A stretch of 64,000 bases of DNA, from NCBI GenBank assembly GCA_022797145.1, contig JAAWKA010000007.1, positions 1,589 through 65,588 on the forward strand, given 5' to 3'. Made by a program: the position numbers and the translations under genes. The notes beneath the pieces are model-generated. The model was given only the letters and a program-made list of their open reading frames with translations, ran no database searches and had not been told where the DNA came from. Within the stretch, counting starts at the first letter, position 1; every line of letters starts with the position of its first letter. This document shows, piece after piece, positions 30,351 through 41,468 of this stretch. Source of the DNA: Clostridia bacterium. Lineage in GTDB: Bacteria > Bacillota > Clostridia > TANB77 > CAG-508.

Positions 30351-32345
30351 ATGTTAGATGATATTAAATTTCAAAGTTATTGTTGGAGCTTAGGAACTAC
30401 TAGCTTTAGAGTAAAAGACTTAAACTTTAAAATAGAAAAGCAACTACAAATATTAGATGAATTATGGAACGAAAGTCCTAATGAACAATGGACTGGAAAT
30501 AATAAAATTCAAGAAGAATATTATAATAAAATGTTGTCTAAAGAGTTTATTACAGGAGAAGCAAATAATAAACCTAAAGATGCTAGACAAAAAACTTCTG
30601 GATTAGTTCAAATGGGTGTAATAGATGATAATAGGCACATAACAGAAATAGGAAACAAAATAATTGCTATAGTTGAAAGTGAAAATTTTAAAGATGATAA
30701 TATTTTTAATATAAATAAAGATAGTTATCTATATTTAAAACAATTATTAAAACTTCAAATAACTGATAATGGGATTAATGTAAAGCCATTTGCTGTATTA
30801 CTATATTTTTTAGCAGAATTACAATATTTATCAAAAGATGAATTTACTTATGTTCTTCCTTTAGCTACTAGCGGTGAATATATAGATTTAATGTTAGAAA
30901 ATATAAAAATGCTTAGAAATAGTCAAAAAACAATAGAGGATATTATTCAAAACAAGATGGAAAATATGTCTAATTATAAGGCTGCTATCCAATTTATAAA
31001 AGAAAACGGAATAAACAATATTGAAGAGTTTGCTATTATAGATATGGGAAGAAAAGGAACTAAATATGTAAAACCAATGTATGACTTCTTTGAAAAATTA
31101 TATGCAACATCACAAAGAACTTTTGATGAAGAAGCTTTAAATATAATAGTGGCATTTATAAAAGAACAAACAAAGAAAAATTCTAAAGTTGCAAAATATT
31201 GGAAAGAGTACTTTAAATATTCTACAAGAATATTAACAGAAGAATACCTAGAAGAGATAAAAAAAATACCTTTATTTAATTTTAAAGATAAAACAGAATA
31301 TGCTGTAGAATTTTTTAAGATAATGCATACTGCTAAATGGAAAGCTACATTAGAAGATTATGCAGATTTAAACAAAAGGTATATTTCATTATCTGATGTT
31401 GTCATTTTTGAAGATGATAGAATAGAATTAGATTTGTTTCCTAAGTATTTCTTTTTAAACATTTCTAAAGAAATAGTAAATACGGAAATTTTAAATAAAG
31501 ATAAATATGAAGAATTTATATCAAAGGATATTGAATTTAATAAAATATATAATTGCCTTGATATAAATGTTGATGATGTAATAATTCAAATTCAGACTGA
31601 TTATCCAAATAAATTAGTAAACAGAAATAGTATTAAAACATTTATCGAAGATGAAAAATTAAGAAGATTTAATGAATTGATTGATAATAAATTTAGTGAG
31701 AAGCAACTTATTGAATTATTTAAAAATATTGAAAATAATGATAGAAATGCAATTAATGACTATATTGATTGGAACTCTGATATACCAACAATATTTGAAT
31801 ATATTTTAGGTATTACATGGTATAGATTTAGTAGTAAAAGTGGTAATATATTAGAATATATGAAATTAAGTTTAGATGCCAATTTATTACCAAAAACTCA
31901 TGCGGCAGGAGGAACTGCTGATATAGTATATGAATATAATAAGACTGATACTTATCCAGAACATAAAGTCCTATTAGAAGCTACTTTGACAGAATCAACA
32001 TCACAAAGAAAAAATGAAATGGAACCTGTATCAAGGCATTTAATGAGAGAAATTCAAGAAAATGATAATGATAATACATACGCTGTTTTTGTGGCTAACA
32101 TATTACAAGAAGAAGTGTTGAGTGACTTTAGATCGAGAAAGAGTTATCAATTTAGAGGCAATAATTCTGTGAAAACTGGTTTGAAAATTATTTCTCTTTC
32201 CATTCAAGATATAATAAAGTTAATTAATTTAAAAGTACAATATTCAATGCTATTTGAGATATTTGAAAATGCTTATGAAGATACGGAAATCAACGATTTA
32301 GAGTGGTATGAAAAACTCATAAAAAATAAAGTTAATAATTTGTAA
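30351..32345 (+). CDS. Putative type IIS restriction (or nicking) endonuclease, AlwI/BstNBI/PleI/MlyI-like
   Basis: 664 aa adjacent to a tandem methyltransferase. N-terminal KDARQKTSGLVQMGVIDDNRHITEIG and C-terminal GGTADIVYEY...LLEATLT...EPVSRH resemble the RE_AlwI family as I remember it. Intrinsic terminator at 32345-32370. Confidence 0.6.
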   Translation: MLDDIKFQSYCWSLGTTSFRVKDLNFKIEKQLQILDELWNESPNEQWTGNNKIQEEYYNKMLSKEFITGEANNKPKDARQKTSGLVQMGVIDDNRHITEIGNKIIAIVESENFKDDNIFNINKDSYLYLKQLLKLQITDNGINVKPFAVLLYFLAELQYLSKDEFTYVLPLATSGEYIDLMLENIKMLRNSQKTIEDIIQNKMENMSNYKAAIQFIKENGINNIEEFAIIDMGRKGTKYVKPMYDFFEKLYATSQRTFDEEALNIIVAFIKEQTKKNSKVAKYWKEYFKYSTRILTEEYLEEIKKIPLFNFKDKTEYAVEFFKIMHTAKWKATLEDYADLNKRYISLSDVVIFEDDRIELDLFPKYFFLNISKEIVNTEILNKDKYEEFISKDIEFNKIYNCLDINVDDVIIQIQTDYPNKLVNRNSIKTFIEDEKLRRFNELIDNKFSEKQLIELFKNIENNDRNAINDYIDWNSDIPTIFEYILGITWYRFSSKSGNILEYMKLSLDANLLPKTHAAGGTADIVYEYNKTDTYPEHKVLLEATLTESTSQRKNEMEPVSRHLMREIQENDNDNTYAVFVANILQEEVLSDFRSRKSYQFRGNNSVKTGLKIISLSIQDIIKLINLKVQYSMLFEIFENAYEDTEINDLEWYEKLIKNKVNNL

Positions 32346-32419
32346 AAAAGAGTTGAAAAACTCTTTTTTTATTGTTATAATTTCAGTGTGCATAAGATGC
32401 CTTGAAAGGAAATGAAAAT

Positions 32420-34384
32420 ATGATAAAAAAACTAGAGATAAACAATAGAAGATTTTTAGGTAGTAAATATAAGTTACTAAATTTTATTGAAGATACTGTG
32501 AATGAGCATTGCGAAGATGTTAAATCTGTGATAGATGTATTTGCTGGAACAGGTGTAGTAGGCAGTTTGTTTTTAAAAAACGGAAAAGAAGTATATTTTA
32601 ATGATTATTTAAAATCAAATTGTTATAGTTATAAAGCATTTTATGAGCCTACGAAGGTTGATATAAAAAAGCTTGAAAAAATAATTAATAATTATAATGA
32701 TATGGAAATAGATGAAGAAAACTATTTTTCAGAAAATTTTAGTGATACATATTTTAGCCATAAGGATTGCAAAAAGATTGGTTTTATTAGAGATGATATT
32801 GAAAGTAAATTTAGCTATCAAAAAATTAATGAGCGAGAAAAAAGTATATTGATAGCAAGTCTTATATATTCAATGGACAAAGTGGCGAATACTGTTGGGC
32901 ATTATGATGCTTATAGGAAAATAAGTAATATAGAAGATAAGTTCTTTATGTATATGCTTGATGTTGCTGAAAAAGGCGAAAAAAGATCACATATTAGCAA
33001 CTTAGATGCAAATGAATTTATTAAAAGTGTAAAGGCTGATTTAGTATATATTGATCCACCCTATAACTCAAGACAATATTGTGATGCTTATCACTTACTA
33101 GAAAATATTGCTAGTTGGGACAAGCCAAAGGTATATGGGGTTGCAAAGAAAATGGATAGAACAAATTTGAAAAGTAAATATTGCACAAATAAAGCAATAG
33201 AAGCTTTTGAAGACTTAATAAAAAATTGTAACTGTAAATATATTTTGGTTTCTTATAATAATACAGGAGATAAGTCAAACAGTAGAAGTAATGCTAAAAT
33301 ATCTGATTTACAAATTAAGCAGATACTAGAAAAGAGAGGAAAAGTTCAAGTATTTGAAAAATCTTTTAATAATTTTACAACAGGAAGGAGTGTATCAATT
33401 AATCACAAGGAGAGATTATTTTTATGCGAAACAACAAAGGTTTGTGAAGACAGTCAAGTAAAATTAAAAGATAGCCATTATTTTGCAAAATCTCCTTTAA
33501 ATTATACAGGAGGAAAATACAAACTATTATCTCAATTTGCAAATTTATTTCCTAAAAAGATAGATACATTTGTTGATTTTTTTTGTGGTGGTGGCAATGT
33601 TGCAGTTAATAGTAACGCAAAAAAAATAATTGCAATAGATAAAGAAACTAATTTAATTAAAATATTAGAACTCTTTAAAAATTACGATTATATGGACATT
33701 GTTAATAAGATTGAGGCAATTATTGAAAAATATAATTTAAGTAATACCTACAAGAATGGATATGCATTTTATGGAGAAGATAGTTCATCAGGGCTTGGAA
33801 AATATAATAAACAATACTATTTAAATTTAAGAAATGATTATAACCATATGAAAGATTCAACTGAAAGAGATTTTATGTTTTTGACATTGGTAATTTATGC
33901 GTTTAATCATCAAATTAGATTTAATAGTAATGGTGAATATAATATGCCAGTTGGAAAGAGAGATTTTAACAGTTCAATCAGGAAAAATTTATTGGAATTT
34001 TGTAGAAAATTAGTTGTTAAAAATATTTCTTTTGTTAATACAGATTATAAAAAGTTTGAACTAAAATCTTTAAATAACAATGATTTTTGCTATTTTGACC
34101 CACCATATTATTTAGGGGATGCAAGTTATAATGAAAATGATGGTTGGAATGAGAATAAGGAGAAAGAATTATTAGAATATTTGAATGAAGTAAATAAAAA
34201 TGGTATAAAATTTGCACTTTCAAATGTTACAGAGCATAAGGGATTAAAAAATGAAATATTGATTAATTGGGCGATAGAAAATCAATATAACATACATAAT
34301 CTAAACTATAATTACAGCAATTCAAACTACCATTTGAAAGACAAAAGTCAAGTTACAAAAGAAGTATTGATAACGAATTATTAG
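32420..34384 (+). CDS. Two-domain (tandem) N6-adenine DNA methyltransferase
   Basis: Two complete D12/Dam-class modules. Module 1: FLGSKYKLL, DVFAGTGVVG, VYIDPPYNSRQY (M.FokI-half-like). Module 2: NYTGGKYKLL, DFFCGGGNVA, CYFDPPYYLGD (Dam-like). Confidence 0.9.
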   Translation: MIKKLEINNRRFLGSKYKLLNFIEDTVNEHCEDVKSVIDVFAGTGVVGSLFLKNGKEVYFNDYLKSNCYSYKAFYEPTKVDIKKLEKIINNYNDMEIDEENYFSENFSDTYFSHKDCKKIGFIRDDIESKFSYQKINEREKSILIASLIYSMDKVANTVGHYDAYRKISNIEDKFFMYMLDVAEKGEKRSHISNLDANEFIKSVKADLVYIDPPYNSRQYCDAYHLLENIASWDKPKVYGVAKKMDRTNLKSKYCTNKAIEAFEDLIKNCNCKYILVSYNNTGDKSNSRSNAKISDLQIKQILEKRGKVQVFEKSFNNFTTGRSVSINHKERLFLCETTKVCEDSQVKLKDSHYFAKSPLNYTGGKYKLLSQFANLFPKKIDTFVDFFCGGGNVAVNSNAKKIIAIDKETNLIKILELFKNYDYMDIVNKIEAIIEKYNLSNTYKNGYAFYGEDSSSGLGKYNKQYYLNLRNDYNHMKDSTERDFMFLTLVIYAFNHQIRFNSNGEYNMPVGKRDFNSSIRKNLLEFCRKLVVKNISFVNTDYKKFELKSLNNNDFCYFDPPYYLGDASYNENDGWNENKEKELLEYLNEVNKNGIKFALSNVTEHKGLKNEILINWAIENQYNIHNLNYNYSNSNYHLKDKSQVTKEVLITNY

Positions 34385-34394
34385 AGGTGAAAAC

Positions 34395-35048
34395 ATGGAA
34401 AAAATAATAGATTTAGATGATATAGAAACATATCCTAAACAAGTGTTAGAATATTTAAAAGATAATAAATTAACGGAATTTCCAAAACTTTCTACTTATT
34501 TCTTGGAATATATTAATACGTTGTATTGTAATTTTTATCATTATACTAGAATACCAGATAAACAATTTGTATTAAAAAATGGATTATTGCGACCAGCTAC
34601 AAGTGATTTATTAAAAGATTATTATATAAATATATTAGAAAACTTATATTATAAAGAGGAAAATATTAATTTTAGAAATCTTATATATAACTATAAATAT
34701 GAAACTAGCGGAAATTCAGTTCATGTTACTGCTCCTTTAATAAAAAGTAGAGAATTTAAATCAAAAGGTGTTTTTGATTTTATAAATTATTGGGGTGGTG
34801 AATTAATAAAAGATATAATAGAACCTATTATAGGGATTGAAAAATGGAAAAAAACTCACATTATAGGAGTGCCTTGTATAGTTAATATCAAAGTTAGTTT
34901 ACAAGAAATGTCAGAAACAGAGTTACAAAGAATAATATATATAATGCAGTGTAGATATAAAGAAAAGAGAAAAATTGGAATGGATTATACTTTTTATAGA
35001 GATATTGCACCAAATGAAATTATTGAAATATTTGATATAAAATACTAA
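34395..35048 (+). CDS. Hypothetical protein (217 aa), third gene of the R-M cargo operon
   Basis: ATG 10 nt after the methyltransferase stop; SD AGAGGTGA overlaps that stop. No family recognised. Motif FYHYTRIPDKQFVLKNGLL noted. Confidence 0.6.
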   Translation: MEKIIDLDDIETYPKQVLEYLKDNKLTEFPKLSTYFLEYINTLYCNFYHYTRIPDKQFVLKNGLLRPATSDLLKDYYINILENLYYKEENINFRNLIYNYKYETSGNSVHVTAPLIKSREFKSKGVFDFINYWGGELIKDIIEPIIGIEKWKKTHIIGVPCIVNIKVSLQEMSETELQRIIYIMQCRYKEKRKIGMDYTFYRDIAPNEIIEIFDIKY

Positions 35049-36819: not shown

Positions 36820-37035
36820 TTAATAAACTACTTTTGGAACATCTATTGAAACCGTTAATTTTCTGTCTATTTCAAATCTTTTCTTTTTAGCATTATACTT
36901 GTAAGCACTAGAATTAAATTTTCTAAAACTACGATCTGAAATGTCAAAATAATAAGATAGTTCTTCAGCATCTTGTTTCAGTTGGGCTTTAAGAGCTTCA
37001 TAACTATCTCTATTAGTTTTTTGTTTTAATTTCAT
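36820..37035 (-). CDS. Hypothetical protein (71 aa)
   Basis: 4-nt overlap with the upstream HTH gene suggests translational coupling; no family recognised. Confidence 0.45.
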   Translation of the reverse strand: MKLKQKTNRDSYEALKAQLKQDAEELSYYFDISDRSFRKFNSSAYKYNAKKKRFEIDRKLTVSIDVPKVVY

Positions 37036-37226
37036 GTATTCAATCTTTGTTCTTTATGCTTTTGTTTGTTTTGTTGTTTCCTTTGATTTTTTTCTTCATG
37101 ATACCTAAAATCTTTTTTTATTACTTTTGATACATAGGCATTGCTGACATTTAGTTCTAAAGCAATATCAACCGGTTTTAAATGTTCATTGTAAAATAAA
37201 TCAATGATTTTTTCTTTATTTGACAC
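37032..37226 (-). CDS. Small HTH DNA-binding protein (64 aa)
   Basis: GTG start. KPVDIALELNVSNAYVSKVIKK is HTH-like. First gene of the regulator-orf71-xis-int string. Confidence 0.55.
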   Translation of the reverse strand: MSNKEKIIDLFYNEHLKPVDIALELNVSNAYVSKVIKKDFRYHEEKNQRKQQNKQKHKEQRLNT

Positions 37227-37593
37227 TATAAAAGCACCTCCCTGTAACTGGTTAAATTTTTGCTAATAAATTTTAAGCATAGTAATCCAAATGAATACTT
37301 ATAACTAAATACTCATTTTTAAATTTATTTGTTAAAGGAATTATATTATCATAATTAGTAATAATCAATTCCCTTTTTTCTAAAAACTTAAAAATACTTA
37401 AAATAAATTATGAATAGATTCTAACAAGTGATGTTAAAAATTTCAATGAACAAATTTTGAAAGGATTTTGAAAAAATGAGTACAAGAAAATTGTAAAAGG
37501 TTACAAATTTCATTGTTTTTTATAGAATAATTAGATATAATAACAACTTCCTTTTCTTAAAGGAAATCTTTGAGAGAGGAGGTGCTATTTCGG

Positions 37594-37680
37594 ATGACCT
37601 CATTTGAATTAATCTGGCGTCTAATTGTGTTACTATTAAGTACATACGAAGACAAAAAGCCAGAAGACAAACAAGACTAG
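37594..37680 (+). CDS. Candidate type I toxin peptide, 28 aa (MTSFELIWRLIVLLLSTYEDKKPEDKQD)
   Basis: SD GGAGG 37578-37582. Promoter TTGTTT 37513-37518 / TATAAT 37536-37541. 5' UTR hairpin 37548-37565. Terminator 37691-37723. Hydrophobic core with a charged tail. Confidence 0.45.
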   Translation: MTSFELIWRLIVLLLSTYEDKKPEDKQD

Positions 37681-37727
37681 AAATAGTTGATAGAAGTGTA
37701 TTGCTACTGCACTTCTATTTTTTAGAC

Positions 37728-37802
37728 AAAAAAATAGAACTAAATGTTGCTACCCATTTAGTTCGTGCTATTCAAATGACCTCACATTGAATAACTTAAG
37801 TT
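37728..37802 (-). ncRNA. Candidate antisense (antitoxin) sRNA, ~75 nt, convergent to the peptide gene
   Basis: Promoter TTGACA (37837-37832), 17 nt, TATACT (37814-37809). Terminator hairpin 37764-37737 plus U-run. The 5' region is complementary to the peptide mRNA through the direct repeat 37582-37610 / 37765-37793. Confidence 0.4.
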
Positions 37803-37871
37803 AAATATAGTATACTACTTTTTTTATTATATGTCAAATGAAATTTTTGTATTCCTATAAACGGCAAAATA

Positions 37872-38045
37872 TCAATCTTCTTCTACATCTTTAAATAATT
37901 TATCTGTAAAAAATTCATTTAGTTCAATTCCAAGTAATTGTAATTTTTCTGCTAAATCTTGTTGAGATAAATTGGCTTTTAATCTTAATTCTTTTAAAAC
38001 AGAGCCAGATATATTTCTAAACTCATTGTATTTGTTAATTTTCAT
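37872..38045 (-). CDS. Mini XRE-type HTH protein (57 aa)
   Basis: Below the ORF-track cutoff. SD AAGGTGAG. LKELRLKANLSQQDLAEKLQLLGIEL is an HTH_3 pattern. Divergent from the 38220 gene. Confidence 0.45.
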   Translation of the reverse strand: MKINKYNEFRNISGSVLKELRLKANLSQQDLAEKLQLLGIELNEFFTDKLFKDVEED

Positions 38046-38219
38046 ATTCTCACCTTATTCGCTTTATTATAGATATTATTGTACTATTATTTTTTTATAT
38101 GCATATCTCTAATAAAGCAACAAAAGACCCCAAAATTGATTTATGCAAATAATTGTGTTATAATTAAATTACATTCAATGTTGAAGAATGAACAAATTTC
38201 TTTATAGGAAGAAAACAAT

Positions 38220-39966: not shown

Positions 39967-41468
39967 TGAGGTGAACCAAAAATATTGGACAAAAAAATAT
40001 TTTAGTATGGAGGTTCACCAGTATGTTTAAATATTCATTTGATTTTAAATTTAAAGCAGTAAAATATGTAGTGTATGGGAAGCATTCTTATAGAGAAGCT
40101 TCAAGAAAATTTAATGTCCATCAAGAACAGATAAGAGTATGGACTAATAGATATAGGATTTATGGTAAAAATGGACTTATACCAAAGCCAATTCAAAAGT
40201 ATGATGGCAAATTCAAAGTAGATGTGGTAGAATATATGTATGCTAACCCTTTATCTTTTGAAAAGATGGCTATTCATTTTGGATTGCCATCTTCTACAAA
40301 TGTTGTATTATGGAAGCAAATGTATGATGAGAAAGGCACTCGGGTATTTGCTTAATAATAGGAATATTGCAATTGATAGAGTAAGAATAAATCGTGTGAA
40401 AAAGAAGAAAAATAAACAAAATACTAATTCAAATACATCAATAAAATCTACTTCTAAGTCTTCTATAAAATCTGATAAAAGTAATGAAGAACTTTTAAAA
40501 GAAATAGAAGATTTAAGAATGGAGAATGATTACTTAAAAAAATTACAAGCATTAGTTCAAAAAAGAACAAGCCAGCAAAAAAAGAAAAAGCATTAGCCGT
40601 TTATGAATTGAGGCAAAAATATAAAATAACGGCTCTATTAAGAAAAGCAGAATTATCTAAAAGCACTTATTATGATATTATTAGTAAACTTTCAAAGCCA
40701 GACAAATATGAAGAAGTTAAAGAAGTTATAAAGCAAATATATCATTCAAATAAAGGAAGATACGGCTATCGTAGAGTTACATACGAGCTTTTAAATAGAG
40801 GCTATAAATTAAATAGAAAACCCGTTTATAAATTAATGAAAGAGTTAGAGTTACAATCATTTGTGAGAGTGAGAAGATATCGTTCCTATAAAGGCAATTA
40901 TGGGAAAGTAGCACCTAATATATTAAAGAGAGATTTTAAAGCAGATAAGCCAAATTCAAAATAGGTTATAGATGTTACTCAATTTAATGTATTAGATACA
41001 AAAATATATTTATCTCCCCTCGTAGACTTGTTTAATGGAGAGGTTGTAAGTTATAATATATCTGAAAGCCCAAACTTTCATCAAATAGAAGATATGCTAG
41101 ACAAAGCATTTATAAGAATTTCAGATAATACAAAGTTGATTCTTCATTCAGATCAAGGTTGGCAATATCAAATGGAGAAATATCAAAATCGTTTAGCAAA
41201 AAAAGGGATTATACAAAGCATGTCTAGAAAAGGAAATTGCTTAGACAATGCTTGTGCAGAAAACTTTTTTGGGTTATTAAAAACAGAGTTTTTCTATGAT
41301 AGGAAATTTGAAAGTATTACTCAATTTAAAAGAGAACTTATTGATTATATAAATTATTATAATAATGAGCGTATAAAATTAATGCTAAAAGGAAAAAGTC
41401 CAATTCAATATAGAATGGATTTTGAACAAGTAGCATAAAAAACTGTCCAACTTTCGTGGGTCACTTCA
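39967..41468 (+). mobile_element. IS3-family (IS150-group-like) insertion sequence, degenerate
   Basis: ~25-bp imperfect terminal inverted repeats TGAGGTGAACCAAAAATATTGGACA (39967-39991) and TGTCCAACTTTCGTGGGTCACTTCA (41444-41468), about 19/25 matching. orfA/orfB organisation with an A-AAA-AAG slippery heptamer at 40578-40584. Confidence 0.85.
40023..41438 (+). pseudogene. IS3-family transposase OrfAB with a frameshift in orfA and TGG-to-TAG in orfB
   Basis: The orfA HTH part (40023-40355) and leucine-zipper part (40240-40596) are in different frames. The orfB rve/DDE domain (HSDQGWQY, SRKGNCLDNA) is split by TAG at 40962-40964, where family members have W (KPNSK-W-V.DVT). Confidence 0.8.

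Follow-up and report, generated by a model that had tools for sequence, protein, structure and literature searches.

Two Convergent Genes in an Integrative Mobilizable Element

The stretch of DNA analyzed here (hereafter the window) comprises 64,000 nucleotides of contig JAAWKA010000007.1 from a Clostridia bacterium (assembly GCA_022797145.1; positions 1,589 to 65,588). It contains an integrative mobilizable element (IME) within which a plus-strand gene for a 28-amino-acid (aa) peptide faces a minus-strand gene for a predicted small RNA (sRNA). In a preliminary description, made from the letters of the sequence, this pair had been proposed to be a type I toxin-antitoxin locus of the par/Fst kind acting as an addiction module of the integrase-bearing element. 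The region 37300–38100 was read, and the promoter, Shine–Dalgarno (SD) sequence, open reading frame (ORF) and terminator of the peptide gene, together with the promoter and the terminator hairpin with its U-run on the opposite strand, were all found where that description had placed them (Table 1).

Table 1. Features of the peptide gene and the facing sRNA gene, with positions in the window (SD, Shine–Dalgarno; UTR, untranslated region; MFE, minimum free energy).
Feature	Position	Strand	Description and basis
mRNA promoter	37513..37541	+	TTGTTT, 17-nt spacer, TATAAT; read in sequence
5′ UTR with predicted anti-SD stem	37548..37582	+	5′ end UUCCUUUUC paired with SD region GAGAGGAGG; mRNA MFE fold
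Shine–Dalgarno sequence	37578..37582	+	GGAGG, 11 nt before ATG; read in sequence, conserved in the family
mRNA repeat copy	37582..37609	+	GTGCTATT / ATGACCTCA / TTGAAT; last SD base to codon 6; target of the sRNA 5′ domain
Peptide gene	37594..37680	+	28 aa, MTSFELIWRLIVLLLSTYEDKKPEDKQD; ATG at 37594, stop at 37678–37680
mRNA intrinsic terminator	37689..37723	+	12-bp stem, 7-nt loop, T-run; fold
sRNA terminator	37727..37764	−	Stems 37737–37746 and 37755–37764, loop 37747–37754, U-run; scan
Predicted sRNA	37728..37802	−	About 75 nt, 5′ recognition domain then terminator hairpin; promoter and terminator
sRNA repeat copy	37765..37792	−	GTGCTATT / ATGACCTCA / TTGAAT (plus-strand letters); antisense to the mRNA initiation region once transcribed
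sRNA promoter	37809..37837	−	TTGACA, 17-nt spacer, TATACT; 11 of 12 consensus positions; promoter scan

The −35 hexamer of the peptide gene promoter agrees with the consensus at three of six positions, and the promoter falls below the threshold of a consensus promoter scan. The arrangement TTGT(T/A)N-17-TATAAT is nevertheless found at a constant distance from a conserved 5′ UTR in 46 unique loci of the family described below, and across the family the mRNA promoter keeps its good −10 next to a −35 that is weak (TTGTTT or TTGTAA). The mRNA would start near 37548 and be about 180 nt long. The purine-rich SD stretch GAGAGAGGAGG ends at 37582, and a 36-aa version of the peptide ORF, extended to a TTG codon, is nowhere a called gene. 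The plus-strand terminator was not listed by the terminator scan because its loop exceeds the 8-nt limit under the stem definition of that scan.

The hairpin that had been pointed out at 37548–37565 in the 5′ UTR does exist, but pairing of the 5′ end UUCCUUUUC with the SD region GAGAGGAGG is more stable and is the fold that is conserved. The 5′ UTR is near-invariant among otherwise diverged modules (leader consensus AUCCUUUUC..AAAGGAAAUCUUUGxGAAAGGAGG), and each consensus pair is formed in 84–97% of the sequences. Because the leader sequence barely varies, there is little covariation support for this anti-SD fold, which is a prediction. Such a stem should hold the free mRNA in a poorly translatable state, as a classical translational lock.

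On the minus strand, the sRNA promoter is the top promoter-like site in the 2.3 kb scanned, in which 16 promoter-like hexamers were found versus 12.8 expected (the window has about 26% G+C). In loci that were retrieved via the peptide alone, too, the sRNA promoter is near consensus and the −35 of the mRNA promoter is weak. The minus-strand terminator is one of two terminators found in the same 2.3 kb, against 0.6 expected, and the ends of the sRNA in Table 1 are those predicted from the positions of its promoter and terminator. Neither RNA of the window matched a family of Rfam 15, and nor did 13 related loci; searches at gathering and at permissive thresholds gave chance-level hits only. A perfect palindrome, TAACTTAAGTTA (37792–37803), coincides with the predicted sRNA start; its core CTTAAG is kept in most modules, even in those with a different recognition domain, and it may serve as an operator, as a 5′ stem or as a processing signal.

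A Direct Repeat Across the Start Codon

The two genes are linked by a direct repeat consisting of three blocks that are separated by short mismatched spacers. Since the two units are transcribed in opposite directions, the sRNA carries in its 5′ domain a sequence antisense to the mRNA stretch that begins with the last SD base and extends to codon 6, much as the preliminary description had stated. The repeat has a Smith–Waterman score of 31, to be compared with 17.7 ± 2.6 for dinucleotide shuffles (2 of 2000 reach 31) and with 26 for the best match elsewhere in the window. The duplex of mRNA and sRNA calculated with RNAduplex has an energy of −38.9 kcal/mol versus −27.0 ± 3.6 kcal/mol for shuffled sRNAs, one in 1000 of which is as good, and in the cofold about 27 nt spanning the start codon are paired.

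The letters of the repeat vary among related loci, and the mRNA and sRNA copies always match each other. In locus L008, both promoters are the same as in the window and the 5′ UTR is 98% identical; the locus encodes a different 43-aa peptide (MNNAELVWRLVELLLQKEKD...) and carries in both copies the repeat GAACA-N3-ATGAATAATGCT, unlike that of the window; a third version is present in L012, and dozens more in other loci. In L109, ATGACATCA replaces the ATGACCTCA of the window in both copies, the replacement on the mRNA side being a synonymous Thr codon change. A compensatory pair is provided by L066 and L032, with TATATG and TACATG, respectively, each in both copies. When the initiation regions and sRNAs of 39 unique modules were paired, the cognate mean was −28.5 kcal/mol versus −13.8 kcal/mol for pairs from dissimilar modules, and the cognate sRNA was the best partner in 38 of the 39. 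A count of specificity classes by single-linkage clustering of the duplex energies was uninformative, nearly all modules being chained into one group. Masking of the translation initiation region by the sRNA is strongly supported by this covariation, and the sRNA would in this way repress translation of the peptide.

Complementarity of the Terminator Loops

Each of the two predicted transcripts has a terminator hairpin and a U-run of its own; there is no overlap between them, their 3′ ends lying a few nucleotides apart. Both terminator loops of the window (37701–37707 and 37747–37753) contain a third direct repeat, TTGCTAC, the loop RNAs of the mRNA and the sRNA being complementary over 7 nt. 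This complementarity is an addition to the preliminary description. Among 26 unique pairs of terminator loops, 20 share 6–8 nt, and in at least three of the six failing pairs (L047, L055, L068) there is inserted sequence and the script picked the wrong hairpin. Between loop classes, no more than 5 nt are shared (mean 2.75). The distinct loop sequences number about a dozen, the repeats in other loci including CTGTCGC, TCATCAC, TGACCAAC, TGCAAC, TCGCTAC and TCGCAAT and, among others, CTACCAC, TGATCA, TCCCTA and GCGCTATC. The loops are predicted to form a kissing contact, and a specific RNA–RNA interaction at two sites is as firm as sequence analysis allows.

Distribution and Genomic Context of the Module

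Relatives of the module were reached via the neighboring helix-turn-helix (HTH) gene, DNA patterns, a longer family member, and a profile. Ten contigs, L008 among them, came from the look-up of the neighboring 57-aa HTH protein, and most of them carry the IME in identical form. A 5′ UTR scan across 185,579 species genomes yielded six metagenome-assembled genomes (MAGs) of uncultured Clostridium or Clostridia; among them are a third specificity type (L012, L014) and L015, in which a stop codon stands in place of W8. A metagenome scan for the sRNA promoter yielded 101 stretches, many of them in records with human-gut metagenome in the title. The unit of peptide gene and sRNA gene recurs in more than 100 loci of gut Clostridia, some of them on mobile elements. 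Peptide, repeat and promoters are conserved together in these loci, and so is the par-like layout that had been proposed for the window (convergent and non-overlapping genes, direct repeats, back-to-back terminators). When the locus was compared by blastn, and the peptide by tblastn, with annotated plasmids and phages, no match was obtained.

In the window, the minus strand carries, in this order, genes for a Mob_Pre relaxase, a remnant HTH protein, the sRNA, p64/p71, Xis (HTH_17), and a tyrosine integrase. Close relatives of the module fill the same slot in related int/xis/Mob_Pre IMEs. Complete modules are also present in Tn4451-like elements, which have a large serine recombinase, TnpV, Mob_Pre and RepA_N, on one IMG/VR contig, and at two chromosomal sites, one between two peptidase M16 genes and yqeY-rpsU-prs-nrdGD and the other between a methyltransferase gene and fabG/fabF. 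Because complete copies occur in core chromosomes and in unrelated mobile elements, the module is regarded as autonomous and not specific to the IME; a part in an IME excision switch is very improbable. A search for the att repeats of the IME gave nothing convincing.

The Peptide Family

Comparison of 39 unique coding sequences showed that L6 and L10 are invariant, that W8 is present in 38 of them, and that positions 7, 11, 14, and 15 stay hydrophobic. Entropy at the three codon positions is 0.94/0.48/1.15, third positions varying most, and for this reason the ORF is regarded as a translated gene under purifying selection. Peptide lengths cluster at 27–31 and 42–44 aa; because most of the genes have 27–44 codons, gene callers seldom report the family. 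A profile search of 5.8 billion proteins gave 732 clusters at 90% identity, and among the best 120 of these there was no Pfam domain and no name except "hypothetical protein". An exhaustive hidden Markov model (HMM) search gave 139 clusters at 50% identity, nearly all of them stand-alone proteins under about 160 aa, mostly of 29–90 aa. NCBIfam, PHROGs, PADLOC, Pfam, and PDB were searched with single peptides and with the family, and no meaningful match was found; none of 30 family members matched Pfam Fst_toxin, even at E ≤ 10. The earlier suggestion that the peptide may belong to a new family and not to Fst is strongly supported by these searches and by the absence of the Fst signature.

The peptide of the window has a 14-residue hydrophobic stretch that is broken by E5 and R9, and conservation in the family is strongest on one helical face. 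The conserved feature would be an N-terminal helix of amphipathic character with a variable, acidic tail behind it. The N-terminus (MTSY-D/E-L..) presumably resembles that of the Bacillus TxpA/BsrG toxins; this comparison was dropped, the general Pfam and NCBIfam scans having returned no toxin family. The family motif DLIWKL/DLIWRL (residues 5–11, 37606–37626) is shared with the N-terminal helix of the antimicrobial peptide bovine lactoferrampin, DLIWKLL..., which was the only match in a literature search for the peptide motifs; this is an analogy to an amphipathic helix active on membranes and not evidence.

Decay of the Peptide Gene with Retention of the sRNA

Upstream sequence was sufficient in 91 of the sRNA-anchored loci. 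In 67 of them the family peptide gene is intact and the repeat matches, 19–20 are orphan sRNAs, and a few others have damaged peptide genes. Orphan sRNAs were found in L056, L073, L095, L049, L033, L043, L048, L099, L100, and L081. Several orphans keep the 3′ end of the ORF or half of the mRNA terminator (in the L056 group, deletions have left only that half), and some adjoin a membrane-protein gene. The orphan sRNA of L033/L043 matches the recognition sequence of the chromosomal P0149-type module.

Peptide genes have been damaged in different ways in loci that keep the sRNA. In L015 (MAG CAOKGO010000009.1, 1..8000), which has the window's own module variant, codon 8 is changed from TGG to TAG; this locus also shows an in-frame loss within the tail and a G-to-A change in the first repeat block of the sRNA copy. 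The peptide gene of L044 has a frameshift and a deletion, the SD sequence of L038 and L040 is AGAGG instead of GGAGG, and the peptide ORFs of L045 and L100 are 5′-truncated. The cognate sRNA is kept in all six loci anchored on the 5′ UTR, in three distinct module variants among 27 checkable places reached via P0040, P0120, and P0149, and in the one P0144 locus read; in these loci no peptide gene lacking its sRNA was seen.

Locus L096 has the same sRNA promoter, anti-SD logic, start-codon repeat, and back-to-back terminators, and encodes an unrelated, strongly hydrophobic 22-aa peptide, MKKYIKLIAEIIILLILKEFDD. The truncated ORF of L045 is of this MKKYIKLIAEIIILLILKEFDD type, its sRNA being intact. 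The asymmetric decay and the peptide of L096 favor a harmful product.

Genes Surrounding the Module

The 57-aa HTH ORF (37872–38045, minus strand) looks like a deletion chimera, the N-terminus corresponding to an Xre-type HTH protein (82 aa) found in related IMEs and the C-terminus to a separate 78-aa HTH protein; a 111-aa gene that lies between both HTH genes in L119 is absent from the window. Overlapping ORFs of 64 and 71 aa (36820–37226, minus strand) jointly match a single 135-aa ORF in IMEs such as L119, and the gene upstream of xis/int may be split in the element of the window.

The integrase end of the IME is adjoined by a restriction-modification pair (30351–35048, plus strand), consisting of a 664-aa AlwI-family endonuclease and a protein of 660 aa that has two methyltransferase domains of the D12 class, and then by a 217-aa ORF; the Pfam assignments of this pair were taken from the identical contig L001. 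Beyond the relaxase (40023–41438, plus strand) there is an IS3-type transposase in pieces (HTH_Tnp_1/HTH_28, HTH_21, rve), followed by genes for a MarR-type regulator and a major facilitator superfamily (MFS) transporter, with Pfam assignments for the 40023–41438 region taken from L004 and L006.

Discussion

The two genes and the signals around them, the coding nature of the ORF, and the covariation at the two contact sites lead us to consider the locus a self-contained module of the type I toxin-antitoxin type that would work in a par-like manner, a reading to which we give a probability of roughly 0.6. According to this model, two convergent promoters, of which that of the sRNA would be much the stronger, would give rise to a peptide mRNA of about 180 nt and an sRNA of about 75 nt. 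The free mRNA would hide its SD sequence in a stem with its own 5′ end. The terminator loop of the sRNA would kiss that of the mRNA over 7 nt, and the 5′ domain of the sRNA would pair over about 27 nt, from just after the SD sequence through the start codon to codon 6; both contacts together would keep the ribosome from binding and probably make the duplex a target of RNase cleavage. Once free of repression, the peptide, with an amphipathic helix and an acidic disordered tail, would inhibit growth by acting on a presumed target. If the element were lost and the sRNA decayed faster than the mRNA, the peptide would escape repression, and the IME would be stabilized in this way. Toxicity of the peptide, and with it addiction, is plausible but unproven. 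As to the part of the preliminary description that assigned the addiction module to the integrase-bearing element, the copies in core chromosomes and Tn4451-like elements show that the module is not element-specific.

Several observations weigh against a toxin-antitoxin reading. The peptide showed no similarity to a known toxin family in the family-library and PDB searches. The best 19-residue Kyte–Doolittle value is 1.06 in the peptide of the window and below 0.6 in most relatives, one subfamily reaching 1.7; the hydrophobic core noted in the preliminary description is thus a feature of the window peptide and does not hold as a property of the family, most members of which are amphipathic and acidic. 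Net charge is mostly negative, usually from −2 to −5. The hydrophobic moment of residues 4–17 is 0.4–0.54, which indicates an amphipathic and not a transmembrane segment (the corresponding value for an Fst sequence is 0.11), and AlphaFold gives only a single helix, with a predicted local distance difference test (pLDDT) score of 91 over the first 20 residues. In these respects the family peptide does not appear to be a typical type I toxin. In addition, the argument from asymmetric decay comes from few independent lineages, and one of the searches started from the sRNA promoter and so is biased in favor of sRNAs.

These properties could be accommodated if the RNA pair were real and the peptide were a cytosolic or membrane-surface regulator, for instance an amphipathic helix binding a host protein, whose synthesis is limited, or made conditional, by the sRNA. 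The locus would then be an sRNA-controlled small-protein gene and not an addiction system. The lack of a transmembrane segment in most members, with their amphipathic and acidic character, the long helix of soluble type given by AlphaFold, the concentration of conservation on one helical face, and the stable residence of some members between housekeeping genes across many samples all speak for such a regulator. However, the layered repression, with an anti-SD stem, a near-consensus sRNA promoter, and a weak mRNA −35, is typical of toxic genes, and the peptide gene has repeatedly been lost or inactivated with the sRNA kept, the opposite never having been seen in the loci checked. The enrichment of the module on mobile elements and the presence on the same RNA scaffold of an unrelated, classically hydrophobic peptide in L096 also disfavor a regulator. 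We regard it as possible, though clearly the less probable of the two interpretations.

Far less probable is a switch for excision or transfer of the IME, in which the pair would control the p64-p71-xis-int operon next to the Xre-type repressor gene. Its basis is the position of the module in the window and in the P0040 relatives, always between the HTH gene and the xis/int operon and with a promoter divergent from the operon. Against it, complete modules also lie away from any integrase, xis or Mob gene (at the peptidase M16/yqeY-rpsU-prs and methyltransferase/fabG-fabF sites) and in serine-recombinase elements, and the 5′ domain of the sRNA fits only its own mRNA, scores elsewhere in the window being at most 26 versus 31; the context data largely refute this switch. 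Chance similarity in AT-rich intergenic DNA with a spurious ORF, which the low G+C content, the frequency of promoter-like hexamers, and the two shuffles reaching the repeat score might suggest, is refuted by the more than 100 loci, the covariation at both RNA contact sites, and the purifying selection on the ORF.

Returning to the par-like module, what appears to be new is a large unannotated family in which peptide and sRNA each form a family of their own, a design with two terminators and kissing loops, and an atypical effector. In a wider and more speculative interpretation, which we hold only tentatively, these loci might represent an undescribed, widespread par-like superfamily of gut Clostridia, with a short amphipathic acidic helix, instead of a membrane-spanning toxin, as effector acting on a membrane-surface or cytosolic target, a programmable and orthogonal RNA recognition at two sites, and orphan sRNAs serving as chromosomal anti-addiction immunity. 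Orphan sRNAs may confer such immunity against elements that carry the matching peptide gene.

Type I toxin-antitoxin families have been discovered for the most part through their homology to a small number of hydrophobic toxins, and the present family, common as it is in human-gut Clostridia, escapes Pfam, NCBIfam, PHROGs, PADLOC, Rfam, and PDB. If validated, it would provide a new family of toxins or small proteins whose chemistry is atypical and non-transmembrane. It would also provide naturally occurring sRNA/mRNA pairs that form an orthogonal series, each with two covarying sites, suitable for studying the co-evolution of kissing-loop and linear pairing and as parts for synthetic regulation in Clostridia, as well as a candidate stabilization and anti-addiction system for gut-microbiome IMEs.

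Comparison with Known Type I Systems

As in type I systems in general, a small ORF is accompanied here by a dedicated antisense RNA, whose specific complementarity covaries both at the initiation region and in the terminator loops. T1TAdb comprises 24 families and Rfam 13 antitoxin RNA families (PMC8594479), and none of them matched the module. Type I modules of Clostridioides difficile, located on prophages or near CRISPR arrays (e.g., CD0977.1-RCd11), encode transmembrane toxins of 34–59 aa with charged C-termini (PMC6563280). They share with the present modules the Clostridia hosts, the combination of a small protein and an antisense RNA, and the location on mobile elements, whose maintenance they are thought to aid (PMC6563280; see also PMC7699646). 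Unlike them, the present modules have the par-type direct-repeat layout, and there is no sequence similarity to the C. difficile toxins.

In the SprA1/SprA1AS system of Staphylococcus aureus, which encodes PepA1, the two transcripts overlap at their 3′ ends. The sRNA gene lies 3′ of the peptide gene there as well, and repression goes through an sRNA domain pairing with the ribosome-binding and start region, outside the 3′ overlap (PMC8594479). The transcripts described here do not overlap, and their peptide is amphipathic and acidic, whereas PepA1 is a membrane-spanning peptide of the Fst family (PMC7472228).

The closest likeness is to par of the Enterococcus faecalis plasmid pAD1 (Fst, RNA I/RNA II). 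In par loci, convergent promoters are combined with a shared bidirectional terminator, whose loops start the RNA–RNA contact; direct repeats (DRa/DRb) mask the initiation site, and a 5′ stem sequesters the SD sequence (Weaver 2020, PMC7472228; Fozo 2010, PMC2887945). Peptides of the Fst/Ldr type consist of a transmembrane helix and a charged tail with a conserved W between them, and show a P/D/S/T-XXX-G (PXXXG) motif (PMC7472228, PMC2887945). The module and pAD1 par have in common the convergent promoters, with the sRNA gene 3′ of the peptide gene, and the start-codon direct repeats that make the sRNA complementary to the initiation region. A 5′ mRNA stem sequestering the SD sequence and a second contact between terminator loops are predicted here and would be further likenesses. 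Both systems have a small peptide with a charged and mostly acidic C-terminal tail, and both are found on mobile elements and in core chromosomes. They differ in that the par RNAs share one terminator and overlap at their 3′ ends, whereas the present RNAs have two terminators of their own without overlap, the loop complementarity coming from a separate covarying repeat of 6–8 nt. The peptide differs from Fst in carrying W8 ahead of the hydrophobic stretch and in having neither a PXXXG motif nor a conserved transmembrane segment (in nearly all members the 19-residue Kyte–Doolittle maximum lies below the transmembrane range), and the module lacks the Pfam match of the peptide and the Rfam match of the sRNA that would place it in the Fst/RNAII family. 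The module appears, from its sequence, to reproduce the loop-first logic of par, and would be par-like in its working without being a member of the Fst/RNAII family.

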